From positions 30,392 to 94,391 of the forward strand of contig JAPPCX010000039.1 in NCBI GenBank assembly GCA_028875655.1: a stretch of DNA of 64,000 nt, written 5' to 3'. Origin of the DNA: Chloroflexota bacterium (GTDB lineage: Bacteria; Chloroflexota; Dehalococcoidia; Lucifugimonadales; UBA3495). Below are positions 1,799 through 36,644 of the stretch, one piece after another. How positions within the stretch are numbered: the first letter of the stretch is position 1; every line of letters starts with the position of its first letter. A program made the position numbers and the translations under genes. The notes beneath the pieces were generated by a model. That model did no database searches, was not told the origin of the DNA, and worked only from the letters and a program-made list of their open reading frames with translations.

Positions 1799-1805
1799 CA
1801 GCCTC

Positions 1806-1893
1806 TGGCGGAGGGAGTGGGATTCGAACCCACGAGGGTATTAGCCCTGCCGGTTTTCAAGACCGGTGCATTCGTCCACTCTGCCATCCCTCC
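1806..1893 (-). tRNA. tRNA-Ser (anticodon UGA), CCA encoded
   Basis: The reverse complement folds as a class II tRNA. Acceptor is GGAGGGA/TCCCTCC and the D stem is GCA/TGC. The anticodon stem CCGGT/ACCGG carries loop CTTGAAA. There is a 16-nt variable arm, a T arm GTGGG-TTCGAAT-CCCAC, discriminator G and a terminal CCA. Confidence 0.9.
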
Positions 1894-1940
1894 GCAACGA
1901 GCAATGGCGGATGCATCCAGTATAGCAGGGCATGGACTGC

Positions 1941-3389
1941 CTACACCCTGCGGAGCAGTTCCGCCTCCAACCGGTCGGCGTCAAAGGCTTCACTGGTCGA
2001 TGCGACCTTGACGTCGCCCTCGCGCACCATGCGTTCGGCTTCGCTCTCTTCCATCACTTCCGGGAAGGCTTCTTCCCGTTCCCGCTGGCGGATGACGTCG
2101 CGGTTGTGGTCGGCGAAGAGCCGGCGCATGGCCACCACCACCGAGTCTGTGGACGACAGGTACTCGGGCATTTGGTACTGGGTGTACTTCTCGGCGTCGT
2201 AGTCCTGGTTGCGGAAGTTGAAGTTGAGCTCCCAGTTGCGATAGGGCCAGGTGGCTCCGCGCACCATCCTACGCAAGAGTCCGGGGCGCGTTTCGTACCG
2301 CTCCACGTTGAGGTACACCATGCGGGTCAGGTTCTCCTCGACCGGAACCGGCCAGCGAGTGCTACGGAAATAGCGGGCGTTGCCGCCGGTGCGCGACATA
2401 CCGGGCAGGCGGGTGCCGTTCCACTCGTTCACATCGGGCGTGTCAGCAGCAGCTCCACGGCGGTAGTAGGGATCCTGACCCCGGCGACGGGCCTTCCAGT
2501 CAAAGAACCAGGTCCAGAGCAGGCGCCAGCGGTGCAGCGGCCAAACGCCATCCACGCCGGGGTAGTACATCTGGTAGGGAATCTTGCCTTCCTCGTCGTA
2601 GTAATACTGTTCCACGGAGGACTTTCCGCTGCCCGGCCGGTAGTGGACGTTCTTGTTGTTGACCAGGTTGGTGCGGTAACCCAGCGGGGTCCGGGGCCGG
2701 CCGCCAACGCGGCTGCCCAGGATACGCAGCGCGTTGCGGTGAACCATGAAGGCGTTGTGGGCGTCCATGGTGTTTTCCAGCACCAGCACCCAGTTGCAAT
2801 CGAACATATCAAAGGATGGGCGACAAATGTTGTGCTCTTCGAACATTTCGGGAGGAATGTCTTCCTGGGGGTCAACCGGCTCGCCCTCGCCCATCCAGAC
2901 GAAGACCATGCCCTTGAGCGTCACGGTGGGGAACTTACGGGCCTTCATGCCTGGCGCGCCGACCATCATGGACTCAGGCCCTTCGGTGAGGAACGCCACG
3001 CAGTTGCCGTCACCGTCGAAGGTAGCTCCGTGGTACGGACAGGTCAGGAACCCTTCAAAATAGCACCGACCCATCGACAGATAAACGGCGCGGTGGGGGC
3101 ACCAGTCCAGCAGGGCCTGCACTTCCCCTTGCTTGTCCTTGAAGAACACCACGTCGGTGCCCAGCATCCGCAGCATGTTGGGCCTGTTTTTCTTCACGTC
3201 CTTGGCGGGCAGGGCCGGGTACCAGTATTCCCGGAAACCCAGCGGTGGGATGCGGCTGCGCCGGTCGCGGGGGTTGTCCGGTCTTTTGAAAGGCGGGGTG
3301 GAATCGAATCCCTGGAATCCGCGCCGCATCTTCTTATAGCCGCCGGGATAACCGGAAAGCGGTTTGAGCAAAAGGCGTTTCAGTCCCAT
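1941..3389 (-). CDS. Rieske (2Fe-2S) domain oxygenase, large-subunit-like
   Basis: 482-aa ORF. The Rieske motif is CPHRAVYLSMG...CPYHGATF (CxH...CxxH), followed by a long catalytic-type domain. Confidence 0.75.
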   Translation of the reverse strand: MGLKRLLLKPLSGYPGGYKKMRRGFQGFDSTPPFKRPDNPRDRRSRIPPLGFREYWYPALPAKDVKKNRPNMLRMLGTDVVFFKDKQGEVQALLDWCPHRAVYLSMGRCYFEGFLTCPYHGATFDGDGNCVAFLTEGPESMMVGAPGMKARKFPTVTLKGMVFVWMGEGEPVDPQEDIPPEMFEEHNICRPSFDMFDCNWVLVLENTMDAHNAFMVHRNALRILGSRVGGRPRTPLGYRTNLVNNKNVHYRPGSGKSSVEQYYYDEEGKIPYQMYYPGVDGVWPLHRWRLLWTWFFDWKARRRGQDPYYRRGAAADTPDVNEWNGTRLPGMSRTGGNARYFRSTRWPVPVEENLTRMVYLNVERYETRPGLLRRMVRGATWPYRNWELNFNFRNQDYDAEKYTQYQMPEYLSSTDSVVVAMRRLFADHNRDVIRQREREEAFPEVMEESEAERMVREGDVKVASTSEAFDADRLEAELLRRV

Positions 3390-3484
3390 AATCGCTGCCC
3401 CCGTTTCAAATCATGGTGGATTTCCGCCATATTAGCAGAATGCACCGGGATTGCCATCCGCCGGGGGCGGACTCCCAAGGCGCC

Positions 3485-4324
3485 CTAGAACGGATACGGC
3501 TGGCCACCACCCACTGCCAGTACCTGGCCGGTAATGTAAGAAGCGTCATGGGAAGCGAGAAACGCTATGGCCGCTGCCTGCTCGTCGGCTTCGCCGCGCC
3601 GGCCCATGGGGATTTCCGAGTTACGGGTCGCTGAACGGTATTCGTCCTGGTCCGCGCGTTCGCGGGCGGGCAAATCGGGCGGAACCACTGCCACGCCGTG
3701 GTCGCGGGGAGTCATGCGGTCGTCGGCCGCGGTGCCGCTGGGGGCGATGCAGTTCACCCGGATGCCCAAGTGGGCGACTTCCCGGGCCAGCGAGGTGGTG
3801 AGTCCAATCTGGCCGGCCTTGGCGGCGGCGTAGGGCACCCGGAAGCGTCCGGTTACGGCGTGAGTAGCGATGTTGACGATGGACCCGGAACCCTGCTCGA
3901 TCATGTAGGGCAAAGCGGCGCGGCAGCACCACATCGCCGTCCAGAAGCTGCGATCCATCTCCGCCTGAATCTGCTCCGGCGTGTAATACTGGAACGACTG
4001 GAACCAAATGGTTCCGCCGGCTATGTTCGCCAGTGCGTCGATCCTGCCGTAAGCGTCGTGCGCCCTAGCCATCAAGGTCTCGGCGTTCTCCCAACGGGAA
4101 AGGTCGCCAAGGGCGATTTCACAAGAACCTCCGAAATCTCGGATCGCTGCGCGCACTCGCTCAGATGTCTCGGCCACCATGTCGCCGATTACAATGGCTG
4201 CCCCTTCCTGGGCCAGACGGCGGGCGGTGGCCGCGCCAATGCCCTGACCACCGCCGGTAACAACGACGACCTGGCCTTCAAATCGACGGGCCCCGGCCGC
4301 TTTGGGATCCAATACAGTCGCCAT
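3485..4324 (-). CDS. SDR family NAD(P)-dependent oxidoreductase
   Basis: N-terminal VVVVTGGGQGIGAATARRLA Rossmann motif and PYAAAKAG (YxxxK) active-site motif. 279 aa. Confidence 0.85.
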   Translation of the reverse strand: MATVLDPKAAGARRFEGQVVVVTGGGQGIGAATARRLAQEGAAIVIGDMVAETSERVRAAIRDFGGSCEIALGDLSRWENAETLMARAHDAYGRIDALANIAGGTIWFQSFQYYTPEQIQAEMDRSFWTAMWCCRAALPYMIEQGSGSIVNIATHAVTGRFRVPYAAAKAGQIGLTTSLAREVAHLGIRVNCIAPSGTAADDRMTPRDHGVAVVPPDLPARERADQDEYRSATRNSEIPMGRRGEADEQAAAIAFLASHDASYITGQVLAVGGGQPYPF

Positions 4325-4396
4325 GGTGGTTACCTATCCGGTGGATTGATCCGCCGTTACTGCCGCTTTACGCCCGCGGTGCAATCCATGGCGCGG

Positions 4397-4723
4397 TCAG
4401 CTTGGAGTAGCATCGGCACTGGAGAAAAAATCTTTCTCCAAATCGGGGTCAACCACACCCAGCAGGCCGTTAGTGTAGAGGCGGCACGCCCGCAGCCACA
4501 GCACCAGGATGGCGTTGTTCACATACATTTGCGGAAGCTCGCGCCCGTGCTCCTGGCGAGCATGAGCGCGAATTCCCGCTTCAAAGAACTGCTCCAGGAA
4601 TGGCGTTGGCTCGTTATCCAGCGCGCACGCCTCCAGGATTTCCGGCGGGGCCTCGCCGCACAGCATGGCCGGCGAGGCTTCCGCCAAGCGAATATAGTCG
4701 GGTTCCTGGTCCTGGGTAATCAC
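4397..4723 (-). CDS. hypothetical protein (108 aa)
   Basis: GTG start lies 6 nt after the stop of the upstream NHL gene. Third-position GC bias matches its neighbours. No family recognised. Confidence 0.5.
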   Translation of the reverse strand: MITQDQEPDYIRLAEASPAMLCGEAPPEILEACALDNEPTPFLEQFFEAGIRAHARQEHGRELPQMYVNNAILVLWLRACRLYTNGLLGVVDPDLEKDFFSSADATPS

Positions 4724-4729
4724 GCCGGA

Positions 4730-5794
4730 TCACAGGTTCATCTGTGGAACCATGTAATTGTCCATCTTGTTGTAAATCTGCAGCCGGCTGCGCTGGGCGT
4801 CCAGCACCACCAGGCGGCCACGTTCCTCGTCAAAATGCACGTCCGTGGGCAGCGCGAACCGCCACTCCGACTCGGTGGTGGGAACCTCCCGCCGTCGCTT
4901 GAGGTAGTCCGCGTTGGCAACCACCGTCATGTCGGCCCACTTGCTGAGCCACTGGGCATCGCCGATGAGGGAGATGATGAAGTTGCCTTCCTTGTCGAAG
5001 ACATGGACCTTGCCGGCGTGCATCCCGTTGTCGCTCCAGTCAGCAACGTACACGTCGCCCTGCGGGTCAATGGTAACCTGGACGGGAAGGTGCATCTGGC
5101 CGCGCTTGGTTCCGGGCTCACCGAACTGCATCAGCCACTCCCCGTCAGTGGTGAATTTCTGCACCCGGTGGTTGCGGTGATCGGCGACGTAAACCGAGCC
5201 GTCGCTCTGGTCAACGGTGATGCCCCACGGAGAATTGAACTCCCCGCTGCCATCGCCCAGGGAGCCCCAACTGGTGATCAACCGGCCATCGCCGGTGAAC
5301 TTGCGGACCTCGTGGCTGCGCCCGTCGGTGCAGTAGATATTGCCGTCGCCGTCAACGGCGATGCTGGACGTGCCGTGTTCCTTGCCGTCGTCTTCGGGAA
5401 CGGCGCTCCACCGGGCGACAAACGTGCCGTCCTTCTCGAACTCGGAGACTTGATTCATCCACTCGTCGGCCACATAGATGTGGCCATTGGGCGCCAGCAC
5501 CATGCCGGATGGCCAGATGAACTCGCCGTCGCGGTCGCCGTACTTGCCGAATTCGCCGGTGAATTCCTCATCTCCCTCATTTTCGCCCAGGTCAATGATG
5601 CTGACCCGTGCGCCGTAGGCCAGCTTGTTCCACGGCACGTTGGAAATGCCTTCGATGCCCCGATTGAGCACGTAAACGGTGTTGCCCTCAAAGGCCATCG
5701 CGGTGGGCTGGCTGAAGCCCATGCCCGAAGCGGCGCCGCGGCCCACCGAGTGGCTGTAGTCGAACACCCGGCCCTTTGCGATTTGCGTAAGCAT
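4730..5794 (-). CDS. NHL repeat beta-propeller protein
   Basis: Repeated YVAD-x-x-N-x-V-x-x-F-x-x-DG units (YVADHRNHRVQKFTTDG, YVADEWMNQVSEFEKDG, YCTDGRSHEVRKFTGDG). The start is trimmed to ATG 5794 (MLTQIAKG). Confidence 0.7.
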   Translation of the reverse strand: MLTQIAKGRVFDYSHSVGRGAASGMGFSQPTAMAFEGNTVYVLNRGIEGISNVPWNKLAYGARVSIIDLGENEGDEEFTGEFGKYGDRDGEFIWPSGMVLAPNGHIYVADEWMNQVSEFEKDGTFVARWSAVPEDDGKEHGTSSIAVDGDGNIYCTDGRSHEVRKFTGDGRLITSWGSLGDGSGEFNSPWGITVDQSDGSVYVADHRNHRVQKFTTDGEWLMQFGEPGTKRGQMHLPVQVTIDPQGDVYVADWSDNGMHAGKVHVFDKEGNFIISLIGDAQWLSKWADMTVVANADYLKRRREVPTTESEWRFALPTDVHFDEERGRLVVLDAQRSRLQIYNKMDNYMVPQMNL

Positions 5795-5913
5795 AGTTTT
5801 ACCTGCTTGCAGCTTGTGTGTCTTGTCAAAATTTCGGGGCCAGCAGATTAGCACCCGCCGGCCCCGGCCGTTTCTGCCTGTCGGCGCGTCCCGAAAACCG
5901 GAACCAGTGCCGG

Positions 5914-7041
5914 CTAGATGAACGGGACCTTTTCGAACTGTCCGCTCACGATAGGGTTGGCGTCCAGTCCCATCCAGTCTTCCAGGATGGTAGTGTACAC
6001 GCCGCGGAAGTCGGTGTTGGGCACGAGGTCGCCCTGTTCCAGGTCTTCGGGCTTGGAGGACGGGTATTCGCCGTACTCGCCACCCTTGACCGGGTCGCCC
6101 ATCATCAATACCAGGCCGGCGGCGCCGTGGTCGGTGCCGCTGCCGTTGTCGTGGACCCGGCGGCCGAACTCGGAGAACATCAGCAGGATGACGTTGTCGG
6201 CGGCATCGTTCTCACGCAGGTCATCGAAGAAGCTGGAGACGGCGGCGGAAACGTCGCGCCACAGGCCGTCGTGCATGCCCACCTGGTTGGAATGGCTGTC
6301 GAAGCTGCCGTGGTCGCAGTAGAGTACCCGGCTGCCCAGGTTCGCCTGATGCACCTGGGATATTCCCTTGAGCTTGCGGGCGATGGGGGTGTCGGGGTAC
6401 TCAACGCTGCTGCTGTACTGCTCGGGGGCCACCTTGAGGATATCAGCTGCCTTGAGGCCGTCAAGGCCGGTCTGACCCAGGTAGTCCATCACGAAGCCGC
6501 TGCCGATGGTGGGGGAATAGAGGCGCGAGAAGCGGTTGATGATCTTCTCCCGCTGCATCTCTTCCTGGATGCTGGTCAGCATGCCGAAGTTCTCCAGGTC
6601 GTCCACGCACGCGACGGGGACGCCGGGCAGCGCCAGGGCGCGCGGCAGGCTCGGCCCGAAGCTGACGGCCGTGACCACGTTTTCCTTGTTGGGGTCGATG
6701 TCGCGGGTGGCGCGGCCCAGCCAGCCCTCGGTTCCCAGCTTGTCCGGCTCACAGGTGTGCCAGATGTCCATGCTGCGGAAGTGGCTGCGCGGGCTGTTGG
6801 CGTAGCCGACGCCGTGGACGATAGCCATGTTGCCGTCATCCCAGAACCGGCGCAGCGGGGCCAGTTCGGGGTGGAAACCGATGCTGTCGTTCAGCTTGAG
6901 GATGCGCTCGTCCGCGACTCCCACCACGGGCCGCTTTTCGCGGTAAAGCGGCTCGGCATGGGGAATTACGGTGTTCATGTAGTCATTGCCGCCGGTAAGC
7001 TGCAAGACCACCAGAACCGGATCTTTCTTCGTAGAGGTCAT
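5914..7041 (-). CDS. DUF1501 domain protein (sulfatase-like fold)
   Basis: Motifs LQLTGGNDYMN and DHGSFDSHSNQ, with ...GTDHG near the C-terminus. The start is trimmed to ATG 7041 (AGGAG upstream), because the longer ORF runs through a REP element. Confidence 0.75.
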   Translation of the reverse strand: MTSTKKDPVLVVLQLTGGNDYMNTVIPHAEPLYREKRPVVGVADERILKLNDSIGFHPELAPLRRFWDDGNMAIVHGVGYANSPRSHFRSMDIWHTCEPDKLGTEGWLGRATRDIDPNKENVVTAVSFGPSLPRALALPGVPVACVDDLENFGMLTSIQEEMQREKIINRFSRLYSPTIGSGFVMDYLGQTGLDGLKAADILKVAPEQYSSSVEYPDTPIARKLKGISQVHQANLGSRVLYCDHGSFDSHSNQVGMHDGLWRDVSAAVSSFFDDLRENDAADNVILLMFSEFGRRVHDNGSGTDHGAAGLVLMMGDPVKGGEYGEYPSSKPEDLEQGDLVPNTDFRGVYTTILEDWMGLDANPIVSGQFEKVPFI

Positions 7042-7099
7042 TTTGCTTGCTCCTGTGGGTATAGTCGTTCCACTGCGAGTGTGCGTTGCGCCAAGGCGT

Positions 7100-7125
7100 G
7101 GATTCCGGCTTTCGCCGGAACGACG
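7100..7125. repeat. REP-like palindrome, family A variant (GGATTCCGGCTTTCGCCGGAACGACG)
   Basis: The hairpin TTCCGGC-TTTC-GCCGGAA lies in the gap between the DUF1800 stop and the DUF1501 start. It shares its architecture with eight other loci listed below. Confidence 0.7.
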
Positions 7126-7144
7126 AATCGGCGCGACAATCACA

Positions 7145-8548
7145 TCAGGCGTACTGGTAATCGCGCAGCGAAACGATCAACTGCAGCATTTCGGAAATCC
7201 GCTCCTCGGACGCGCTTACGTCGGAGTCAGTCGCCCAGGAAACGGTGCCGCCGACCTCGGCGTGGGTCACCAGTTCCTGCCTGGTGGCATCGTCCACTTC
7301 CAGCGGGCCCATGAGGTCCAGGCAGTTGTCCACCATCGCCTGCGGGGTCAGGTCGCCCTGGGCCTGCATGCGGCTGATCATGGAGCGGATGCCCGGGCGG
7401 CTGACGTCGCTGACCATGTCGGCGGTGAAGTTGATGCGACGCATCAGGGAGCCGCTGTTGATCCACTCCACGCCGGTGTGCCAGCCTTCCACGCTGGGCG
7501 GGTTCAGCAGATCCTGGCCCATGTAGGTGGGCTGGCGGGCCATTTCGCCCAGACCGGGGCCTGGGAACTCGAAGCCGCCGACCAGCCGCAGGGTTCCCAC
7601 CACCACTTCGGCGGGACTCTTGAGGCGAGCGTAGCGGGCGTTCTTGAAGAAGTCGCTGTTGAACAGCACCCGGAGCGTCGCGGTGATGTCGCACCCGGAA
7701 TCGACAAAGGCGTCGGCCAGCAGGTCGATGGCATCCTCGTCCTTGGGCGGGGTCACCTGCCAGGCCGGTACCTGCGCTTCGTCCGCCACGAAGAAGTTGT
7801 AGAGGTGGCGCGCAATGAAGGTCGCGGTGGCCGGATGCTCGCAGATGATGTTGATGATATCTTCGCCGTTGAAGTTGCCCGTCTCGCCGAGGAACGATTT
7901 CTCGCCGTCGTCGTGGTCTTCCGGCAGATACTGGAATTGCCAGTCATGGCGTCCGATGGGGCCGCGCGGCAACTTGGGTTCAAAGGTCCAGCCGGTGAAG
8001 GCCCGGGAGGCTTCCCGTACGTCAACCTCGGTGTAGGTGCCGACGCCCATGCTGAACAGTTCCAGCAACTCGCGGCCCCAGTTTTCGTTAACGGCGTCGG
8101 CATGGTTCTCAAAGTTGTCGAGCCAGTAGATCATCGCCGGGTTCTTGGCGACTTCCAGCAACAGGTCTTTGTAGTTGCCCATGCCCTTTTCGCGGAACAG
8201 GGCGACCATGCGCGTGATCTCGTCGTAGTGGTCAACCTTGGAAACGCCGGTAGCGAAGATCTGGTGCCAGAACAGCGCCATCTTCTCTTCCAACGGCCGC
8301 TTGGTATTGATCATGAAGTGCAGCCACTCGGCCGAACCCATCCCCTGGATGGTGCCGGGACGCCAGGTCCAGGGCTGATAGCGGATCAATTCGTAGCGGT
8401 CAATGGCCGGCTGGCTCTCGGGGTCGAGCAGCTCGTCAACCGTAGCCTCGTAGCCTTTGGCAACCCGCTCTTCCAGTTCCTCGCGGGTCGCGCCAAAGCC
8501 GGCACGACGCATCAGGTGGGCCATCAAAGCAATGTCTTGCGATGCCAT
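7145..8548 (-). CDS. DUF1800 domain protein
   Basis: N-terminus LMAHLMRRAGFGATREELE is typical of DUF1800, and the gene sits immediately upstream of DUF1501 as usual for this pair. Start ATG 8548 is preceded by GGAGG. Confidence 0.75.
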   Translation of the reverse strand: MASQDIALMAHLMRRAGFGATREELEERVAKGYEATVDELLDPESQPAIDRYELIRYQPWTWRPGTIQGMGSAEWLHFMINTKRPLEEKMALFWHQIFATGVSKVDHYDEITRMVALFREKGMGNYKDLLLEVAKNPAMIYWLDNFENHADAVNENWGRELLELFSMGVGTYTEVDVREASRAFTGWTFEPKLPRGPIGRHDWQFQYLPEDHDDGEKSFLGETGNFNGEDIINIICEHPATATFIARHLYNFFVADEAQVPAWQVTPPKDEDAIDLLADAFVDSGCDITATLRVLFNSDFFKNARYARLKSPAEVVVGTLRLVGGFEFPGPGLGEMARQPTYMGQDLLNPPSVEGWHTGVEWINSGSLMRRINFTADMVSDVSRPGIRSMISRMQAQGDLTPQAMVDNCLDLMGPLEVDDATRQELVTHAEVGGTVSWATDSDVSASEERISEMLQLIVSLRDYQYA

Positions 8549-8607
8549 TACTTCGCCTCCTGCAAAGTGTTCAAAGTTTGGGCACATTATCTGTTATGCT
8601 GGAACTA

Positions 8608-8615
8608 CTGTCAAC
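8608..8615. repeat. left copy of 8-bp direct repeat CTGTCAAC (putative target-site duplication)
   Basis: Identical octamer abuts the outer end of each terminal inverted repeat (8608-8615 and 9796-9803). Confidence 0.7.
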
Positions 8616-8651
8616 GGGAATCATTCCACCCGTTATGTAACTAATCCCACC
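8616..8651. repeat. left terminal inverted repeat GGGAATCATTCCACCCGTTATGTAACTAATCCCACC
   Basis: Its reverse complement recurs at 9760-9795 with one mismatch (A/C at position 28). Confidence 0.85.
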
Positions 8652-8673
8652 CGTAATGGGCGCACTTGTCCCG

Positions 8674-9081
8674 TCATCCCGGCATTCCGGGAAACGGGAA
8701 CAACTCATCCAAATTGATGGCGAGAACGTCATCGACGGCGTAAACCCATGCAAGGCCTTCGATTTCGTCAGGCCAGTATGCGGCGAAGTACTCATACCCG
8801 TGATCCCGGGATGCGGTGGCTATTTCCTGGAGGAAGCAAGGCCACGTCCTGAAGGGGTTGGCGTAATTCTCCACCAAGCCGGTATCAAATATTGGTATGG
8901 CTATTGGCTCAGAATTGGTTTCTGGGGTGTCAGAGTCGGGGGGGAGGGGAAGCATGCGTAGGTAGTAGTGATCGTAGAAGTAGCCGCCACCGTACTCGGT
9001 ATAGTGGTCGCCCTCGGTGGTGTACGTCAAGGCATCCCCATCTAGGATACGCAAGGGACGGACTGGTTGTAGCGTTGACAT
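8674..9081 (-). CDS. hypothetical protein (135 aa), cassette ORF-A
   Basis: ATG 9081 is preceded by AAAAGGAGGCAAAA (strong SD). The protein is acidic and Tyr/Trp-rich (MSTLQPVRPLRILDGD...). The longer 244-aa ORF in the track is rejected as an upstream extension. Confidence 0.55.
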   Translation of the reverse strand: MSTLQPVRPLRILDGDALTYTTEGDHYTEYGGGYFYDHYYLRMLPLPPDSDTPETNSEPIAIPIFDTGLVENYANPFRTWPCFLQEIATASRDHGYEYFAAYWPDEIEGLAWVYAVDDVLAINLDELFPFPGMPG

Positions 9082-9128
9082 TTTTGCCTCCTTTTGGCAT
9101 GTTGTACAGGCTCCGCGAGGGTGTCTGT

Positions 9129-9719
9129 ATGGTGCGACCTGAAAATTTCGCTGATCATTTCGACTGGGCGAAATTGGCCTTCTTGTCTGGTCTAACCAGC
9201 GACGATTGGGCCTACCACCCGATGTATTTTGCTCGCTCGCCTGACCGTTCTTTTCCTTGTCGTTACGCCTCCTTTCTGGGTGTCCACCTGGTAGATGGCG
9301 ATATTTGGGACAGGAATGAAGTCGTTGGGACGACCAAGAACTGTCCCGATCACATCCTCCTTGACCCGGACAAGGGCATTGGGGGACGGAATAGTGAGCG
9401 GATAACAATTGGTGAATTGGCCAAAATAACAGGGGCTTCTCCTGTCCGCGCTGACAAACTTATCTTGATTTATAACCAATCCATCGACCGTTGGTACGAC
9501 CAGAGAGGCGACCCCGATGTACAAATTCGGTACAAATTGGCGCAACTTTATTGCGACTACGAAGTCCATGGCAACGCCTATGTCTCCTCTCTCCTTTCCT
9601 TCGTCTGGGTATCCAAGAACCAAAACACCGTAACCAACGCAACTAGGCGACTTCTTGATCGTTCGGGCTTGCCCTCGTGGCGGCTGGTGTCGGATGGGTG
9701 CTGTCATATCCCTAGTTGA
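9129..9719 (+). CDS. hypothetical protein (~196 aa), cassette ORF-B
   Basis: Divergent from ORF-A. ATG 9129 has GAGGG upstream, and ATG 9099 is an alternative. No family or catalytic motif recognised. Confidence 0.45.
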   Translation: MVRPENFADHFDWAKLAFLSGLTSDDWAYHPMYFARSPDRSFPCRYASFLGVHLVDGDIWDRNEVVGTTKNCPDHILLDPDKGIGGRNSERITIGELAKITGASPVRADKLILIYNQSIDRWYDQRGDPDVQIRYKLAQLYCDYEVHGNAYVSSLLSFVWVSKNQNTVTNATRRLLDRSGLPSWRLVSDGCCHIPS

Positions 9720-9759
9720 GCAGGGCGGGGATGAGGCTGTCAATTGGCGAGTGGTTATA

Positions 9760-9795
9760 GGTGGGATGAGTTACATAACGGGTGGAATGATTCCC
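9760..9795. repeat. right terminal inverted repeat
   Basis: Reverse complement of 8616-8651, 35/36 identical. Confidence 0.85.
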
Positions 9796-9803
9796 CTGTC
9801 AAC
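9796..9803. repeat. right copy of 8-bp direct repeat CTGTCAAC
   Basis: Identical to 8608-8615 and immediately outside the right IR. Confidence 0.7.
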
Positions 9804-9825
9804 GATAAGAGACGCTGATGAAGAC

Positions 9826-9855
9826 CGCGTAGCCCAGATCCGCGTACCCCAGATC
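9826..9855 (+). repeat. tandem 15-bp direct repeat CGCGTA[G/C]CCCAGATC x2
   Basis: Two adjacent copies with one mismatch end 1 nt before ATG 9857. Possible operator. Confidence 0.5.
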
Positions 9856-9856
9856 A

Positions 9857-10342
9857 ATGAACAGCACTGTCCCCGGAACCCGTCGCCAGCGGGAATTCGA
9901 CCGTGCCGCACCGCCGTCGCTGGCATGGATCGCCATGTTGGCCCTGGCCCTGTTCGCGTTGGCGCTGCCGATAGCAGGCCCGCTGGACGATCACCATTTC
10001 GCGGAGCGTTCGCATACCCACCAGCACATCTACCCTGACGGCCGCCCGGTGGGCCACGAGCACGCCGGCGCGCAGGCTCTGCCCCATCCACACTCCGACC
10101 GGTCGGGTAGGTCGTTGTCCTTCGGGCGCAACGGCGGCTCCGGGGAGGTAGTGTATCTGGCCGACGCCACCGCCGGTTTCCTGCTGGCGGTGATGAACGC
10201 GCCGTATCACAACGCGCCGGAATCCCTGCGTCCGGCGCCGCCGCGTGGCGATGGAAACAACCTGCTCAGGCCGTTTAGAGTTCTCAGCCGTCAACCTGCC
10301 GAACATCACATCGCACCGCTGCCGCCCCCGCCCATCGCGTAA
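9857..10342 (+). CDS. His-rich membrane-anchored hypothetical protein
   Basis: One hydrophobic segment (LAWIAMLALALFALALPIAG) is followed by HHFAERSHTHQHIYPDGRPVGHEHAG. No SD was seen, so the start is uncertain. Confidence 0.4.
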   Translation: MNSTVPGTRRQREFDRAAPPSLAWIAMLALALFALALPIAGPLDDHHFAERSHTHQHIYPDGRPVGHEHAGAQALPHPHSDRSGRSLSFGRNGGSGEVVYLADATAGFLLAVMNAPYHNAPESLRPAPPRGDGNNLLRPFRVLSRQPAEHHIAPLPPPPIA

Positions 10343-10384
10343 ATCCCCCGCACCTGCAAAAACACAACGCACGGAGGATTTTTC

Positions 10385-11380
10385 GTGATGCGAATGGATC
10401 ATGCCATCTTTCGCCGGCCCGCGTTTTGGCTGGCAACCACGATATTTGTACTGGCGCTGCCCGTGCTGGCGGCGTGCGGCACGGCTGCCCAGCCGGAACC
10501 TGCCGCGCCGGCGCCGGACGAGGAGATCGGCGCCTCCACCGGACAAAGCGCCGCTCAGAGCGCGGACCAACCGGCCGCCGAAACCGCGTCCACCGAATCC
10601 ATGTCGGGACATACCGGGCATGGGGAGCAAGGTTCAGCCGGCCCCGTCGTTCCCGCGGATGCGGTGATGATCAATCTGCCCATCGTGGCTCGATCCACCA
10701 CGTTGACCAGGGACGATCTGAGGGTCAGTCAGGGCGATACAGTCCGCTTGACTTTCACTTCCGACGAACCCGGCGAAGTACACCTGCATGGGTATGACCT
10801 CACCGCCCCGGTATCTCCGGAGCATCCAGGCGAGCTGGAATTTAAGGCAACGACCGCCGGGGCTTTTGGGATCAATTTCCACGTTTTCGCCGCCGGCAAC
10901 ATCACTGGAAGCGGCAGCGATCATCACGCAACCGCGCCGAAAACGGTGGTGTCGGAAACACCGGTCAGCGTTGCCATCACCGCGGAACCGGACGCCGACG
11001 GCGGAGTGAACGTCCAAATCGCCACCCAGGGGTTCCGGTTCGCGCCGGACCTGGTGGACCAACCACATACCCCCGGCGCCGGCCACGCCCACATCTATGT
11101 GGATGGCGTGAAACTGGGGCGGGTCTTTAACGCCAGCTACCGCATTGACCCACTGGCGCCCGGGCAGCACGAAATACGGGTTACGCTGAACACCAATGAC
11201 CACAGCGACTTGGTTTTTGACGGCAAAAACGTGGAAGCGACGGCAACCGTTGTTGTTCCCGACGTTGGCCAAGGCCACGGCGACAGCCACAGCGGGCACG
11301 ATCACGGAGACCACAACCACGGCGCCGACAGTGAGATCGTCGCCGAGGTCCACCTGGGCAACCTGGAAGTCTATCCGTGA
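10385..11380 (+). CDS. metal-binding lipoprotein (cupredoxin-like domain + DUF4399-like domain + His-rich tail)
   Basis: GGAGGA SD. Signal peptide with lipobox LAAC. GDTVRLTFTSDEPGEVHLHGYDL is cupredoxin-like and GAGHAHIYVDG is DUF4399-like. The C-terminus is GHGDSHSGHDHGDHNHG. Confidence 0.6.
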   Translation: MMRMDHAIFRRPAFWLATTIFVLALPVLAACGTAAQPEPAAPAPDEEIGASTGQSAAQSADQPAAETASTESMSGHTGHGEQGSAGPVVPADAVMINLPIVARSTTLTRDDLRVSQGDTVRLTFTSDEPGEVHLHGYDLTAPVSPEHPGELEFKATTAGAFGINFHVFAAGNITGSGSDHHATAPKTVVSETPVSVAITAEPDADGGVNVQIATQGFRFAPDLVDQPHTPGAGHAHIYVDGVKLGRVFNASYRIDPLAPGQHEIRVTLNTNDHSDLVFDGKNVEATATVVVPDVGQGHGDSHSGHDHGDHNHGADSEIVAEVHLGNLEVYP

Positions 11381-11385
11381 CGCGC

Positions 11386-11414
11386 GTAGGGGCGGGTTTG
11401 AAACCCGCCCCTAC
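11386..11414. terminator. perfect palindrome GTAGGGGCGGGTTT-G-AAACCCGCCCCTAC (family B), likely bidirectional terminator
   Basis: 14-bp perfect stem between convergent genes (stop 11380 and gltA stop 11437). A near-identical element lies at 28035-28063. Confidence 0.6.
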
Positions 11415-11436
11415 CGTGTAATCGTTTCGTCGCGCC

Positions 11437-12573
11437 TTACCGCTGTTCGATGGGAACGTACTCGCGATCCATCGGGCCAACATAGTGCAGGCGAGGGCGC
11501 AGCAGGATGTTGTTCTCGTACTGCTCGATGCACTGGGCAGACCAGCCGGGCACCCGCCCCAGCGCGAAGATGGGAATGAACAGGTCGGACTCGATCCCCA
11601 GCAGGTGATAGATGGAACCGGCGTAGAAGTCCACGTTCACGTAGATTCCCCGGTCCCGGTAGGGAGCCATCACGTCTTCGGACAAATGGGTGAGAATTTG
11701 GAACCAGCGCGGGTCGCCTCGCTTTTCGCCCAGCGCTTGGGAGCGTTCCCGCAGGTGGCGCGCGCGCGGGTCCTCAGCCCGATATACCCGGTGGCCGAAT
11801 CCCATGATGCGCTCGCGGTTGTCCAGCTTGTTGCGAGCGTACTCTTCCGCGTTTTCGGGGTTGCCGATTTCCATCGACATCTTCATTACTTCTTCGGCGG
11901 CGCCGCCGTGGGCCGGGCCTTTCAGCGTACCCACCGCGCCGGACACGGCAGCGTGCAGCGTCGAGTTGGTTGACGCGGCGACTCGGGCGGCAAAGGAAGA
12001 GGCGTTCACGCCATGCTCTGCATGCAGTATGAAGTCCACGTCCATCAGGGAGATGGTCTCATCGTCCGGAACTTCATTGAACAGCATGTAGAGGAAGTTG
12101 CCGGCGTGGTTCAGGTCCGGATTAGGCGCGACCGGCTCCAGGCCGTTGCGAATCCGGTGGTGAGCCGTAACGATGGTCGGAGCCTGGGCAGTCAACCGCA
12201 GGGCCTTGCGGACATTGGCTTCCCGGGAGTTGACCTCCGATTCTTCGTCAAAAGCGGCCAGCCCGATCATCGCGGTCTGGAGGACATCCATGGGGTGCGC
12301 CGACTGAACGGCGTCGATGACGGTGATGATTTCGTTCGGTATCCGCCGGTTGGCCCGCAGGAAATTATCCATCTCTGCCAACTGCGCGCTGTTGGGCAAC
12401 TCCCCGTACAGAACGAGATATATGATCTCTTCAAAGGTGGACTTTTCGGCCAGGTCGTGGATATTGTACCCGCGATACAGCAGTTTTCCGATTTCGCCGT
12501 CGATGAAACTGGACTCGGTGGTGTCCATGTACACGTTCATCAAACCGCGATGCAGTTCCGGCTGGTCGGTCAT
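11437..12573 (-). CDS. gltA: citrate synthase (small, type II/2-methylcitrate synthase-like)
   Basis: 378 aa. Motifs HAEHGVNASS, GPAHGGA and GFGHRVYR are catalytic His/Asp region signatures of citrate synthases. AAGGAGG SD. Confidence 0.9.
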   Translation of the reverse strand: MTDQPELHRGLMNVYMDTTESSFIDGEIGKLLYRGYNIHDLAEKSTFEEIIYLVLYGELPNSAQLAEMDNFLRANRRIPNEIITVIDAVQSAHPMDVLQTAMIGLAAFDEESEVNSREANVRKALRLTAQAPTIVTAHHRIRNGLEPVAPNPDLNHAGNFLYMLFNEVPDDETISLMDVDFILHAEHGVNASSFAARVAASTNSTLHAAVSGAVGTLKGPAHGGAAEEVMKMSMEIGNPENAEEYARNKLDNRERIMGFGHRVYRAEDPRARHLRERSQALGEKRGDPRWFQILTHLSEDVMAPYRDRGIYVNVDFYAGSIYHLLGIESDLFIPIFALGRVPGWSAQCIEQYENNILLRPRLHYVGPMDREYVPIEQR

Positions 12574-12670
12574 CTGTGTCCTCCTTGACGTGGGGCAGCG
12601 CCCCGGCGCCGCCGGCGTTATTCGCTTCGTTGCGGCGGCGAATTATGCTAGCACCGGGCGCGTTAGAGTG

Positions 12671-13618
12671 TCAACGCTTCCGCTTGATGGCGCGCAGGGC
12701 GGCCTGTTCGACGCCATGGGCGGTGAGTCCGTTCTTGGCCATCAGCTCATTGGCCGGGCCGGAACCGGTGTAGCCATGCAATGCCACCATCTCGACCGGC
12801 ACGGGTTGATTTCGCGCCACAACACCCGCCACTATACTGCCCAGCCCGCCGTGCACATAGTGCTCCTCGGCGGTCACGATTGCGCCCGTCTCATGTGCCG
12901 CCGCGATGATGGCGGGCTCGTCGGCGGGGGCCAGGGTGTGCAGGTTGATCACCCGTGCCTGGATTCCCTGGCCGGAGAGGCTCTCGGCGGCGTCCAGGGC
13001 CGGCGCAACCAGCGAACCGCAGGCGATGATGCTTACGTCGCTCCCCTCACGCATCACCTCCCCCTCCCCCATACGGAACCGGTAGCCGTCGGTGTGGACT
13101 ACCGGAGTCGCGGCCCGGGGCAGCCGGACGTAGAGCGGACCTTGCATAGTTGCCGCGCTGCGAATGACCTGCTCGGTTTCCGGCGCGTCCGCAGGCGTCA
13201 CTACGCTGAAAGAAGGCAACGCGCACATCAGCGACAGGTCTTCGATGCTGTGGGCGGACATGCCGTCTTCGCCGGTCAGGATGCCGGCGTGGGTGCAGAT
13301 CAGTTTCACGTTCAGCGACGGTTGCGACACCAACACCCGAAGTTGATCGTACGGACGTCCAGTCCCGAATACGCTGAACGTGCTCACGAATGGGATCTTC
13401 CCGGCAGCGGCCAGGCCGGCCGCCACGCCAACGATGTTCTGCTCTGCCGGCCCGAAGTCGAAAAACCGGTCGGGGTACTGGTCGCGCCAGAGATGGACAA
13501 AAGTGGAGACGTTTAAATCCCCACCCAGCACTACGATGTCGGGGTGTTCTTCCGCCATCGTGAGCAGGGTGCGGCCATAGGTTTCGCGGGTTGCCGCCGA
13601 TTGACGGTTGGTAGTCAT
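12671..13618 (-). CDS. transketolase, C-terminal (pyrimidine-binding) subunit
   Basis: The start is trimmed to ATG 13618 (MTTNRQSAATRETYG), which overlaps the TGA of the upstream subunit (ATGA). The FGPAEQN motif is present. Confidence 0.85.
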   Translation of the reverse strand: MTTNRQSAATRETYGRTLLTMAEEHPDIVVLGGDLNVSTFVHLWRDQYPDRFFDFGPAEQNIVGVAAGLAAAGKIPFVSTFSVFGTGRPYDQLRVLVSQPSLNVKLICTHAGILTGEDGMSAHSIEDLSLMCALPSFSVVTPADAPETEQVIRSAATMQGPLYVRLPRAATPVVHTDGYRFRMGEGEVMREGSDVSIIACGSLVAPALDAAESLSGQGIQARVINLHTLAPADEPAIIAAAHETGAIVTAEEHYVHGGLGSIVAGVVARNQPVPVEMVALHGYTGSGPANELMAKNGLTAHGVEQAALRAIKRKR

Positions 13619-14442
13619 CAGGCCAGCTCCTTGAGGGCCGCTTCGTATTCGTCGGCGGTGGGCGCGCGCCCGTGAAAGCCCGGGTTGTTTTCCATGAAGC
13701 TGACGCCCTTGCCCTTGACGGTATCGGCGATGATCACGGTGGGGCCGCCGTCCGTCGCCTCGCTGAGGGCATGGAGCACGTCGGCGTGCTCGTGGCCGTC
13801 GCATGAGATCACGTTCCAGCCAAAATCGCGCCAACGGTCGGCCAGGGGTTCCAGCGTCATCACCTCATCGGTGAACCGGTCGTTTTGGATGCGGTTGCGG
13901 TCAATGATGGCGGTGAGGTTGTCGGCGCCGTGGTGTGCCGCGGACATGGCCGCTTCCCACACTTCTCCCTCCTGGCACTCCCCGTCGCCCAGCAGGGCAA
14001 ACACCCGGTAGTTGCGGCCGTCCAGCCTGGCGGCCAGCGCGTGGCCCAGCGCGAACGAAAGCCCCATACCCAGGGACCCTGAGTTCATCTCGACGCCGGG
14101 AGTTATTGGATGAGCATGGCCCTGGAGCAGCCCATCGGTTTTCCGGTACGACGACAGTTCGGACGCCGGGAAGTAACCCGCGCGAGCCAGCGTTACGTAG
14201 AAACCCGGCGAGGCGTGTCCTTTGCTGAGCACAAACCGGTCCCGCTCCGGCCAGTCGGGCGCGCCGGGGTCGTACCGCAGCACGCCAAAATACAGCGAGA
14301 TCAGGATGTCTATCTCGGAGAGAGAGCCGCCCGTGTGTCCGCTGCCGGCGTCGAAAATCATTTTCAGAATTTCGCGTCGTGATTCGAGGGCGGCGGCGCG
14401 CATCTCCTCGACGGTCAACATCGGTTGTGTCACTACGGCCAA
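13618..14442 (-). CDS. transketolase, N-terminal (TPP-binding) subunit
   Basis: 274 aa. GHTGGSLS, LSKGHA and GDGECQEGEVWEA are TPP-binding motifs. Confidence 0.85.
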   Translation of the reverse strand: MAVVTQPMLTVEEMRAAALESRREILKMIFDAGSGHTGGSLSEIDILISLYFGVLRYDPGAPDWPERDRFVLSKGHASPGFYVTLARAGYFPASELSSYRKTDGLLQGHAHPITPGVEMNSGSLGMGLSFALGHALAARLDGRNYRVFALLGDGECQEGEVWEAAMSAAHHGADNLTAIIDRNRIQNDRFTDEVMTLEPLADRWRDFGWNVISCDGHEHADVLHALSEATDGGPTVIIADTVKGKGVSFMENNPGFHGRAPTADEYEAALKELA

Positions 14443-14508
14443 AGCGTCACCTGCTATTGACGAGGATGATATTGGGGGCGGAAAGAATTATATTCGCCGG
14501 TACCGCCA

Positions 14509-15408
14509 GTGTCCATATTGGGTACACTGGAATGCCAGTCGAGAGGTTGCGCCCCGGTGATTATAGACTTCCATTGCCACGTCCTGCCCCCGCAATTTCA
14601 GGGACGCCACCGGGAACTGGCCGCGCAGGACGCCACCTATGCCGCGTTGTTCCCGGACCAACGCGGTCGTACCGCCGACGTGGACGCGCTGCTCTACGAC
14701 ATGGACGCTGCCGGGATAGATCACGCGGTAATTATGGGATTTGGATGGACCAATCAGGGAATCGCCGAGACTGCAAACAACTACCTGGTCAGCGCAACAA
14801 AGGCTCATCCCGACCGCATATCGGCGTTCGCCTCGGTGAACCCGGCCTGGGGGGATGCAGCGATACTTGAAGCGCGCCGATGCCTGGATGCCGGCGCGGT
14901 GGGCATCGGCGAGTTGCACGCAGACACGCAAGGCTACGACATAGGGGATCCGGACGTGATGGCGCCGATTATGTCCTTGTTGCAGGACGCGGGGTTGCCA
15001 ATCACCATTCACGCATCGGAACCGGTGGGGCACCTGTATCCCGGCAAAGGCCAGACTACACCGGACATACTGCTGCGGTTCGTGTCCAATTTCCCCGACA
15101 ATCGCATCGTGTTAGCCCACCTCGGCGGTGGCTTGCCTTTCTACGCGGCAATGCCCGAGGTTGCGGAGGGGCTGTCCAACGTCTGGTATGATACGGCGGC
15201 CCTGCCGTATCTCTACCGTCCGAGCGCGGTTGCGGCCGCGGCGGTCACCGCGGGGGCGGACCGGATACTCTTCGGCACCGATTATCCGCTGCTTCCGCAC
15301 CGGCGCGTCCTGGACTATCTGAAGTCCGCCGAATTGCCGCCGGCCGACGCAGACGCGACCCTGGGCGGCAACGCGGCATCCCTGCTTTTCGAACCACGGC
15401 ATGACTGA
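14509..15408 (+). CDS. amidohydrolase family (PF04909-like TIM-barrel metal hydrolase)
   Basis: IIDFHCHVLPP metal-binding start motif. GTG 14557 with GAGAGG 10 nt upstream may be the true start. Confidence 0.7.
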   Translation: MSILGTLECQSRGCAPVIIDFHCHVLPPQFQGRHRELAAQDATYAALFPDQRGRTADVDALLYDMDAAGIDHAVIMGFGWTNQGIAETANNYLVSATKAHPDRISAFASVNPAWGDAAILEARRCLDAGAVGIGELHADTQGYDIGDPDVMAPIMSLLQDAGLPITIHASEPVGHLYPGKGQTTPDILLRFVSNFPDNRIVLAHLGGGLPFYAAMPEVAEGLSNVWYDTAALPYLYRPSAVAAAAVTAGADRILFGTDYPLLPHRRVLDYLKSAELPPADADATLGGNAASLLFEPRHD

Positions 15409-15967
15409 ATCGGCCCGACAGACCATTGCGGACACGCTCCCGGATTACCTGCGCCCGGGCCTGGACATCGTGTTGATCGGGCTGAATCCGTCAACCCGCT
15501 CGGTGCAGGCCGGACACTACTTTGCGAACCCACGCAACCGGTTCTGGCGGGCGATCTCCGCGTCCGGGTTGATTGGCCGCGAGGTCTGGCCTGAAGACGA
15601 CGCGGCGTTGCTGGACATGGGTATCGGGTTCACCGACGTGGTGAAACAGCCGACGCCGCAAGCGTCCGGCTTGACCGCGTCCGACTATCGCCGGGATGCG
15701 CCGTTGCTGCGGGAGAAGCTTCTGGAACACCGGCCTGCCATCGCCTGTTTTCACGGCGCGACGGGGTACCGCGCCTATCTGCGGTATGCGGAAAACGTCC
15801 GAGCGTCTGGCGAAATCGTGCTGGGTCGCCAGGAGCACACCATCGGCGGCAGCGAGGTCTTCGTCGTACCCAACCCCAGCCCGGCGAACGCGCGTTATTC
15901 CTTGCAGGATCTCACGTCCTGGTACGCTGCGCTGGGCCGGCTGCGTGAGGAGTTAAAGGGTGCTTGA
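15401..15967 (+). CDS. mug: G/U mismatch-specific uracil-DNA glycosylase (Mug/TDG family)
   Basis: LDIVLIGLNPS and HYFANPRNRFW motifs. The ATG overlaps the preceding stop by 8 nt. Confidence 0.8.
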   Translation: MTESARQTIADTLPDYLRPGLDIVLIGLNPSTRSVQAGHYFANPRNRFWRAISASGLIGREVWPEDDAALLDMGIGFTDVVKQPTPQASGLTASDYRRDAPLLREKLLEHRPAIACFHGATGYRAYLRYAENVRASGEIVLGRQEHTIGGSEVFVVPNPSPANARYSLQDLTSWYAALGRLREELKGA

Positions 15968-16547
15968 CCACGGGGACACGCTACGCACGTTCATCGCGCT
16001 TCCGTTGCCCGGCGACTGGACTGCGACGCTGGAAGATGTCATCGATGAATTGGACTCGGCGGCTCCCGCCGGCGTGCGTTGGGTTCGGCCGTCGGGCATC
16101 CATCTCACGTTGAAGTTTTTAGGAGCCACCGACCCGGCGCTGGTGTCACGCATTCTGGACGGGTTGCTGGATAGTGTGGGAGGAGCGCCGGGGCCGGCGC
16201 TTTCGCTCTCGGGGTTGGGAACCTTCCCCAACCGCAACAATCCCCGGGTGATCTGGGCCGGAGTGTCCGGCGACATGGAGACTTTGGCAAACTTGCAGCA
16301 GCGGGTCGAGACCTTGGCCGTCGGCCTCGGTTGGGCTGCTGAACGCAGGCCGTTTCGACCGCACCTGACCATCGGACGCGTACGGGATCGCATATCCCCG
16401 AGAGAGCGCAAGCGGTTGGTGACGGCCATCTCGAACTGCGCCGTGCCCCGGCTGCCATCCTGGCGACCCGACGCGGTGCGGCTCTACAAAAGCGAACTCA
16501 CACCCCGGGGAGCGATTTACACCAACCTGGGCGAGGTTGAAATCTGA
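15960..16547 (+). CDS. thpR: RNA 2',3'-cyclic phosphodiesterase (2H family, ThpR/LigT)
   Basis: Two H-x-T-x motifs (HLTLKF and HLTIGR). GTG start overlaps the mug stop by 8 nt. Confidence 0.8.
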   Translation: MLDHGDTLRTFIALPLPGDWTATLEDVIDELDSAAPAGVRWVRPSGIHLTLKFLGATDPALVSRILDGLLDSVGGAPGPALSLSGLGTFPNRNNPRVIWAGVSGDMETLANLQQRVETLAVGLGWAAERRPFRPHLTIGRVRDRISPRERKRLVTAISNCAVPRLPSWRPDAVRLYKSELTPRGAIYTNLGEVEI

Positions 16548-17479
16548 TGGAAACTACGTTGACCGGAGTTATCAAGCCCACCGCGCCATACGATTTTGAA
16601 TTGACCGCGGGGCAGCCAAACTACTCCCGCGACCAGGAATTCAAGACCGAGGATTACGTTGACGGGTCATATATCCGGCTGTTGGACCTGGGAGACAAGA
16701 CGGCGCTGGCCAGGGTGGAGTCAACCGGCTCGGTGGAGGACCCGGAACTGACCATAGCGCTCACCGGCGATGACTTGAGCGACGCCGACGCGGAACGGGC
16801 CGGCCGGCAGATTTCATGGCTCCTCGGCTGCGACCAGGATCTGCGACCGTTCTATGACGCAGCAGGCGATGACCCGGTATTGTCCGAAGTGGTCGAGCAG
16901 TTTTACGGGTACCACAACACCCGAACCGCGTCGGTTTTCGAGGCCCTGGTGCAGGCGGTCATGGGCCAGCAGATCGCCACTGCCGTGGCCCGAATCGTGC
17001 GCAACCTGTTGATCCAGAATTACGGCGTGCGCGCTTCAATCGAGGGCCGGGAGTGGTACGCATTTCCACGGGCGAACGCCCTGGCCACGGCGGAAGTGGC
17101 CGACCTCCGGCAGCTGAAGTTGAGCGTAAGAAAATCCGAGTACATTCAGGGCATCGCGCAGGCCGCGCTGGAATCCCCGGATGGGTTCGAGGGGATGCAC
17201 GACCTGCCCGACGAGGAAGTCATCACGCGCATGGTCGCTTTGCGCGGCGTCGGCCAGTGGACGGCCCAATGGGTGCTGGTTCGGGCGCTGGCCCGGCCCG
17301 ACGGGTTTCCTATCGGCGATCTGGCCCTGAGGCGAACGGTAGCCGGTCTTTACTTCGACGGGGCGGAGATCAGCGACGACGAGTTGCTGGAGTTCTCCCA
17401 CCGGTGGTCGCCCTGGCGCTCCTACGCAACGGCGTATCTCTTCGCGGCATTGCGAGCCGGCAGGGTGGCGGGTTCCTGA
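16547..17479 (+). CDS. DNA-3-methyladenine glycosylase II-like (HhH-GPD, AlkA family)
   Basis: The HhH-GPD region LRGVGQWTAQWVLVRALARPDGFPIGDLALRR includes the catalytic Asp context. The ATG shares its A with the upstream TGA. Confidence 0.75.
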   Translation: METTLTGVIKPTAPYDFELTAGQPNYSRDQEFKTEDYVDGSYIRLLDLGDKTALARVESTGSVEDPELTIALTGDDLSDADAERAGRQISWLLGCDQDLRPFYDAAGDDPVLSEVVEQFYGYHNTRTASVFEALVQAVMGQQIATAVARIVRNLLIQNYGVRASIEGREWYAFPRANALATAEVADLRQLKLSVRKSEYIQGIAQAALESPDGFEGMHDLPDEEVITRMVALRGVGQWTAQWVLVRALARPDGFPIGDLALRRTVAGLYFDGAEISDDELLEFSHRWSPWRSYATAYLFAALRAGRVAGS

Positions 17480-17492
17480 TTGGCCGGGACTC

Positions 17493-18818
<1,326 letters not shown>

Positions 18819-18827
18819 TTCAAATAC

Positions 18828-19928: not shown

Positions 19929-19929
19929 T

Positions 19930-36547: not shown

Positions 36548-36566
36548 ACGCTCTGCGGTCTTTGCG

Positions 36567-36593
36567 GGGCGACGCAATGCGTCGCCCTTTTTT
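36567..36593 (+). terminator. intrinsic terminator
   Basis: GGGCGACGC-AAT-GCGTCGCCC (9-bp stem) followed by TTTTTT, 20 nt after the LLM stop. Confidence 0.8.
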
Positions 36594-36632
36594 GATGTCT
36601 GGTTGGCCTATTTTGACCTAGTATCGTGTGCT

Positions 36633-36644
36633 TTGATATATCAA
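36633..36644. promoter_or_regulatory. 12-bp perfect palindrome TTGATATATCAA in AT-rich intergenic island (possible operator)
   Basis: Seen directly. It lies within the AT-rich block 36594-36900. Confidence 0.3.

Follow-up and report, generated by a model that had tools for sequence, protein, structure and literature searches.

The stretch of DNA considered here, a 64-kb portion of contig JAPPCX010000039.1 from an uncultured bacterium of the phylum Chloroflexota (the window, 64,000 nucleotides in all), contains at positions 8616-9795 a cassette that is very probably, at roughly 85% by our own estimate, a non-autonomous DNA transposon of the mobile insertion cassette (MIC) type. An element of this type is defined by passenger genes that lie between inverted repeats, usually with a target duplication, and by the lack of a transposase (PMC3913671). 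The cassette is built in this way: two near-perfect 36-nt terminal repeats enclose two passenger genes, open reading frames (ORFs) A and B, and no recognisable transposase is present. It belongs to a known kind of element and does not constitute a new class of mobile DNA. Its 1,180 bp, counted from outer repeat end to outer repeat end, are the very segment that is missing from a near-identical contig assembled from a different sample. A passenger-carrying, non-autonomous element mobilised in trans was one of three readings put forward in the initial annotation, and it is this reading that the evidence favours.

The left terminal inverted repeat lies on the plus strand at 8616-8656 and begins at its 5' end with GGGAATCATTCC. 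Its 36-nt core at 8616-8651 reads GGGAATCATTCCACCCGTTATGTAACT[A/C]ATCCCACC and recurs as its reverse complement at 9760-9795, within the right repeat (9755-9795, minus strand), with 35 of the 36 positions identical. A repeat search extends both arms to 41 nt at 93% identity (8616-8656 and 9755-9795), and a 27-nt portion of the core is found at these two sites only in the whole window, with up to three mismatches permitted and an expectation of 0 from 100 shuffles. The left repeat also carries a 12-nt sub-repeat twice, 21 nt apart (CCACCCGTTATG at 8626 and CCACCCGTAATG at 8647), and the element as a whole ends in GGG...CCC. Directly outside both repeats stands the octamer CTGTCAAC, which forms the left (8608-8615) and right (9796-9803) copies of a target-site duplication. 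Since a G follows both copies, the duplication could also be 9 bp long (CTGTCAACG), in which case one repeat would be 1 base shorter.

In composition the element is the most pronounced low-G+C island of the window, with 53.0% G+C against 62.5% for the window, some 10 points lower; local counts are 25/60 at 9421-9480 and 42/60 at 10441-10500. The same tendency is seen at third codon positions, where the G+C fraction is 0.65 in ORF A and 0.57 in ORF B compared with 0.72-0.85 in neighbouring genes, and the low G+C indicates that the genes of the cassette are foreign. The two genes are divergent. ORF A (8674-9081, minus strand; coding 8677-9081 with the stop codon at 8674-8676) specifies 135 amino acids and is preceded by a strong ribosome-binding site, AAGGAGG, 5 nt 5' of the ATG, whereas ORF B (9129-9719) is read from the plus strand and specifies 196. 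The 47-bp spacer between their start codons (9082-9128) accommodates both ribosome-binding sites, and a promoter scan resolved no promoter within it. All the features from which the initial annotation had argued, namely the 36-nt inverted repeats, the abutting octamer, the G+C counts and the two divergent genes, are borne out on the sequence, as are the Shine-Dalgarno sequence of ORF A, its acidic 135-residue product and the approximate length of ORF B.

The clearest view of how the cassette came to lie where it does is provided by an allele that lacks it. A look-up of the exact flanking proteins in public assemblies led to locus L015, which lies on a contig of 409,820 bp assembled from another sample; here the element is absent and only a single copy of CTGTCAAC is found. 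In L015 the DUF1800 gene to the left and the gene for a 161-residue protein to the right are separated by 120 bp, and the junction reads ...GCTGGAACTA CTGTCAAC GATAAGAG... Window positions 3145-8616 (5.5 kb at 99.27% identity) and 9796-13736 (3.9 kb at 99.67%) together match one continuous, gapless stretch of L015, and the two alignments overlap by the duplicated bases only. The segment 8616-9795 was inserted by transposition, as can be read directly from this comparison. The footprint of a transposition event that the initial annotation had recognised in the repeats and octamer is thereby matched by an empty site of the kind that it had suggested should be sought in related genomes, and the converse situation, a block conserved at the orthologous position without a duplication, is ruled out by L015. 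Because the flanks of the filled and empty alleles differ by less than 1%, the event must have been recent. The lineage is well sampled, since the cluster of DUF1800 proteins sharing at least 90% identity has 280 members, some of them named Chloroflexota bacterium, and the exact ORF B sequence is nevertheless found on only eight contigs; the insertion is therefore rare as well as recent.

Contigs from other samples (L002, L003, L004 and L006) carry the element at the same site, identical apart from one indel and a short palindrome. The latter is an imperfect palindrome of 31 nt (8666-8696) that spans the stop codon of ORF A, and it is exactly inverted at the starts of two of these contigs, each from a different sample (positions 1-31 of both L003 and L004). 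The segment is genuinely inverted over its whole length and not folded back, and this may represent a quasi-palindrome template-switch polymorphism. A further contig of 932 bp, L005, runs from the interior of the element through the right repeat into a flank unlike that of the window (AGCTATTCACTGCG..., also read as AGCTATTCACTGCGCTAACCGG...; repeat and flank at 860-932), which suggests a second insertion site. Its right repeat has a 1-nt deletion (GGAATGAT-CCC), and its 5' start is a 51-nt poly-C assembly artefact at a G-run near window positions 8940-8950. Several short-read contigs end inside the element or its repeats. Three of them (L012, L013 and L014, which come from a metagenome-assembled genome at NCBI, an ENA assembly and a Logan assembly) all start at window position 9779, 17 nt into the right repeat, and continue into the normal right flank. 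Breaks within an element are, in general, what a repeated or polymorphic sequence would lead one to expect. The search for further copies that had been proposed at the outset has accordingly yielded a possible second junction, and no transposase-bearing copy in the collections searched.

No recognisable transposase is encoded within the cassette or close by. Neither ORF A nor ORF B, nor any of the five alternative frames of the element, has a match in Pfam, NCBIfam, PADLOC or PHROGs, in keeping with the first impression that the two genes could be assigned to no family. A Mutator-like DDE transposase is likewise absent from the element, from the examined region of the 64-kb window and from the 9.6 kb that precede it. 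That preceding part of the contig (L116, 1-10000) carries, apart from housekeeping genes, a cluster of hopanoid type in which a squalene-hopene cyclase gene is accompanied by an amine-oxidase-type gene and two SQS_PSY genes. The 60-nt left end has no match on plasmids, k-mers of the repeat appear in the literature in unrelated primers only, and six 8-9-mers of the repeat reveal no similar repeat in the covered part of Tables S1 and S2 of a study of prokaryotic Mutator-like elements (PMC3942029).

Among known elements, the closest in organisation are MIC231 of Bacillus cereus and the mic elements associated with qnrD and qnrS2, which share terminal repeats, a duplication, passenger genes, the lack of a transposase and a size of about 1-2 kb. 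In the case of MIC231, mobilisation in trans by IS231A has been demonstrated (PMC3913671). MIC231 has its ends in common with IS231, whereas no insertion sequence with the ends of the window element was found in the collections searched, and mobilisation of the latter in trans is a matter of inference. It differs from the earlier examples also in its host, an uncultured member of the Chloroflexota, and in its cargo, which consists of two uncharacterised genes and includes no resistance or peptidase gene. Miniature inverted-repeat transposable elements (MITEs) are likewise non-autonomous, with terminal repeats, a target duplication and a need for a transposase in trans, but they are typically no longer than a few hundred bp and non-coding, whereas the cassette is 1,180 bp long and almost all coding, with two ORFs.

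As regards the enzyme, there are likenesses of a generic kind to the Mutator superfamily. The prokaryotic Mutator-like elements (IS256, ISH6, ISLre2/TnGBS and ISKra4/ISMich2/ISAzba1) generate 8- or 9-bp duplications and have repeats of 18-39 bp with a conserved terminal C (5'-G...); members of the ISKra4 group occur in Chloroflexi, and some Mutator-like elements have near-perfect repeats and insert beside sigma-A promoters (PMC3942029). The window element resembles them in its 36-nt repeats, its GGG...CCC ends, its 8- or 9-bp duplication and its location at a promoter, traits that are not exclusive to the superfamily. It departs from them in that no such transposase is present or linked, and in that 1 bp separates the insertion from the -35 hexamer, as opposed to the 13-17 bp reported. 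The duplication and the ends would suit enzymes of the IS256 or ISKra4 type without proving them. Duplications of 8 bp are also made by ISL3, IS66, IS6, IS1595, ISAs1 and IS1. For this reason, and because no match to the Mutator-like repeats was found in the covered part of the tables, the element is not filed under any transposase family.

A plausible course of events would begin with a DDE-type transposase supplied by a cognate insertion sequence, either elsewhere in the genome or in the community, which would bind the repeats. Each end may offer two binding sites to this transposase, corresponding to the 12-nt sub-repeat that is seen at the left end. The enzyme would then cut the target with an 8- or 9-bp stagger and integrate the cassette. 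The insertion itself is established by the empty site: the cassette recently entered the divergent promoter region of about 120 bp between the DUF1800-DUF1501 genes and the gene for the histidine-rich 161-residue protein, with duplication of 8 bp (possibly 9 bp). On this scheme the element would be a cut-and-paste or copy-out/paste-in transposon of the DDE type whose transposase has been lost or was never present, and both ORF A and ORF B would be cargo with no function in transposition. In the case of ORF B, an assignment as cargo is favoured because its relatives stand alone without flanking repeats, because some of them show vertical synteny after dinB, and because of its Rossmann-like fold.

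The protein encoded by ORF B is a diverged representative of a widespread family, so far uncharacterised, whose members are about 190 residues long. Its three nearest relatives are 40-50% identical to it, and a profile search returned 281 family representatives (representatives of clusters at 50% identity, from 1.84 billion proteins) and 405 clusters in a larger collection. With few exceptions these are free-standing proteins of that length labelled hypothetical, and the clusters are typically known from one contig each. There is no Pfam domain match in 99 members and no match to sequences in the PDB. The family is characterised by the motifs FGDSYDxVK, LFLDPDTG and LVFDQS, and by invariant residues (D9, K15, W27, P31, M32, L78-D79-P80, G83, L111, F158 and R185) that the window copy retains. 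Two substitutions, T82K and H154S, are common to the window copy and its three nearest relatives, and a further two, G8A and D116N, are seen in the window copy alone, at positions that are 98-99% conserved in the family.

An AlphaFold prediction for ORF B made with only four sequences was poor (pLDDT 50.8), and the model used here was built from an alignment of 122 sequences (pLDDT 91.7, pTM 0.89). It has an alternating alpha/beta, Rossmann-like architecture. A Foldseek search with this model against the PDB and BFVD gave nothing at E <= 0.001. The weak top matches are to the class I methyltransferases KMT9/N6AMT1 (9fl4_A and 6h1d_A; E 4e-3 to 6e-3, TM about 0.4, best 0.41), followed by pyridoxal phosphate (PLP) enzymes, and no transposase, integrase, nuclease, recombinase, RNase H-like or HUH fold is among the matches listed. 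ORF B resembles the class I S-adenosylmethionine-dependent methyltransferases (N6AMT1/KMT9, RlmJ) in its alternating alpha/beta Rossmann-like core, in a conserved hhhDPDxG loop after a beta-strand and in an acidic residue that closes the next strand. It differs from them in having neither a GxGxG nor an NPPY motif and, in the window copy, in the replacement of the 98%-conserved D116 by N; moreover, PLP enzymes score about equally in Foldseek. A more specific kinship with RlmJ, suggested by an N-terminal motif, G-[DN]-x-x-D-[IV]-[VL]-K, and a DP loop that resemble the N-terminus and DPPY loop of that enzyme, is unsupported, as hhalign against E. coli RlmJ returned a probability of 0.2%.

In genomes, members of the family usually adjoin restriction-modification genes, McrBC, dinB or other mobile DNA. 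In three related long contigs (L018, L019 and L021, 4600-6576) the gene follows that of a dinB-type Y-family DNA polymerase at a distance of about 245 bp, on the same strand and in conserved synteny, and this shared position in three related genomes indicates vertical inheritance and not transposition. Elsewhere, family members adjoin an McrBC system (L022-L024; 6001-9936 in L022) or lie beside a type I restriction-modification system together with genes for a Ros/MucR regulator and a nucleoside deoxyribosyltransferase (L025-L027, 1-6564). One relative (L009) is found beside IS607-like tnpB and resolvase genes. The closest relative on a long contig, P0003 in L007 (48% identity in the search, 51-53% in alignments A1-A3), is situated in a mobile or defence island (750-20603) that includes an AlpA-like regulator, IS66, DDE_3 and DDE_Tnp_1 transposases, a Replic_Relax relaxase, a dnstrm_HI1420 antitoxin-like gene, type I restriction-modification genes and an AAA_21 ATPase. 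None of nine other contexts of ORF B relatives has flanking inverted repeats of more than 12 nt, in a search that recovers the 36-nt pair of the window, and no partner gene recurs among the neighbours. No member of the family was found on plasmids or in the viral contigs of IMG/VR. As a hint and nothing further, the surroundings of the gene suggest a role related to DNA or to conflict.

The product of ORF A has an isoelectric point (pI) of 4.05, with 22 aspartate and glutamate residues against five lysines and arginines, and contains 22 aromatic residues. None of 5.8 billion proteins is related to it, Pfam, NCBIfam, PADLOC and PHROGs gave no match and neither did plasmids or the sequences of the PDB, and a tblastn search against all the loci around ORF B relatives and the rest of the window returned only the match to itself.

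Several points tell against a MIC mobilised in trans. A search for the 20-mer CATTCCACCCGTTATGTAAC of the repeat came back empty from GTDB representative genomes, from JGI metagenomes and from IMG/VR, the samples that carry the element lying outside its reach. The terminal 17-mer has 87 matches in GTDB genomes, about the estimated chance number, and these can be put down to chance because they are single, fall in unrelated taxa, show no likeness past 17 nt and lack an inverted partner. Mobilisation in trans is thus something that we infer. The case for a second insertion site is slender, consisting of 36 nt of flank on a single contig whose repeat lacks 1 nt and which includes a poly-C artefact, and this alternative flank was found neither in the window nor in JGI metagenomes. 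Finally, a role of ORF A in transposition is countered only by the size and charge of the protein.

It is against this background that other explanations have to be judged. The cassette might be an autonomous element in which the diverged ORF B acts as a transposition protein of a new kind, recognising the repeats either by itself or jointly with ORF A, as the initial annotation had entertained for one or other of the genes. The element does hold two intact, well-signalled genes and nothing else, neither of known function, and the ORF B branch deviates at near-invariant positions (branch-wide at T82K and H154S, in the window copy alone at G8A and D116N) in a manner that could mean a new function; in addition, two of the three nearest relatives (in L007 and L009) reside amid mobile DNA. 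Against this, the family comprises more than 400 clusters whose members stand alone at about 190 residues, typically on one contig each, flanking repeats are seen in 0 of 9 other contexts, and three related genomes have the gene at the same post-dinB site. The confident Rossmann-like model, with no match to a transposase, integrase or nuclease fold, points the same way, and ORF A, with its pI of 4.05 and five basic residues, is a poor candidate for DNA binding. We regard an autonomous element of this kind as very improbable, and the specific version in which the cassette moves itself through action of the diverged ORF B branch on the 36-nt repeats, with or without the acidic ORF A, as slightly more improbable still; if true, this transposase would have a fold with no relation to those of the DDE, HUH, serine or tyrosine enzymes. 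Alternatively, the cassette could be a dead relic of a larger transposon or insertion sequence, its transposase gene replaced or deleted, that was inserted once and is now immobile. This would account for the failure to find a partner transposase, for the same insertion site on every long contig and for copies that, palindrome and one indel aside, are identical across samples. It sits poorly, however, with repeats that still agree at 35 of 36 positions and extend to the terminal base, with flanks of filled and empty alleles less than 1% apart, which bespeak a recent event, and with the different right junction on one contig, so that a relic appears distinctly unlikely.

The remaining explanation concerns the role of the cargo and is compatible with movement in trans. 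It holds that the two genes form a conflict module (toxin and immunity, defence or anti-defence) in which ORF A neutralises ORF B or mimics DNA against restriction. Many immunity proteins and DNA-mimic anti-restriction proteins are small, very acidic and rich in aromatic residues. ORF A is all of these, it forms a tightly packed divergent pair with ORF B within a mobile element, and relatives of ORF B are found beside type I restriction-modification systems (L007, L025-L027), McrBC (L022-L024) and mobile elements. Against this, ORF A has no relative in 5.8 billion proteins and is missing beside every ORF B relative examined, no other partner recurs there, neither PADLOC nor PHROGs gives a match, and the ORF B family was not found on plasmids or in the viral contigs of IMG/VR. 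Relatives of ORF B persist alone, moreover, which argues against an obligatory antidote. The suggestion of a toxin/immunity or defence pair made from the sequence at the outset has thus found no support, with ORF A alone of its kind and ORF B lacking a constant companion, and a conflict module is a possibility to which we attach little weight. A trans-mobilised MIC carrying two cargo genes therefore remains the reading that we prefer.

To the left of the insertion, a sigma-70-type promoter-like site (TTGACA-17-GATAAT, matching the consensus at 11 of 12 positions; 8586-8614, minus strand) faces the DUF1800-DUF1501 genes and lies outside the element. Its -35 hexamer, TTGACA, is held by the minus strand of the left copy of the target-site duplication, the element having inserted 1 bp upstream of it, and since the octamer was duplicated the DUF1800 promoter stays intact. 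On the right, only 61 bp of the original upstream region of the 161-residue gene are left. A hybrid outward promoter, composed of the right duplication copy and the right repeat, was considered; it is unconvincing by eye and was not detected by the promoter scan. The genes to the right of the element specify two histidine-rich proteins, one of 161 residues with an N-terminal hydrophobic segment (9857-10342) and one of 330 residues with a C-terminal GHGDSHSGHDHGDHNHG (10385-11380). Neither has a Pfam family on record, and the suggestion in the initial annotation that they may bind metal is plausible. Further afield, a single RNA gene was detected in the window, that of a tRNA-Ser with anticodon TGA (1806-1893, minus strand), and a 370-bp AT-rich intergenic stretch at 36550-36920 (about 51% G+C over 600 bp), between plus-strand genes, resembles a terminator followed by a promoter region.

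The cassette is a clean example of a transposase-less element caught between its filled and empty states in a wild, uncultured member of the Chloroflexota. No long-standing question hinges on it. It illustrates that MIC-type elements move small sets of foreign genes in a phylum whose mobile DNA has been little studied, and the main interest that it leaves lies in the mobilising enzyme and in the cargo, above all in the ORF B family. That family spans more than 400 clusters and has a confidently predicted structure, yet it has neither a Pfam model nor a near structural counterpart, and it is a reasonable target for functional work.

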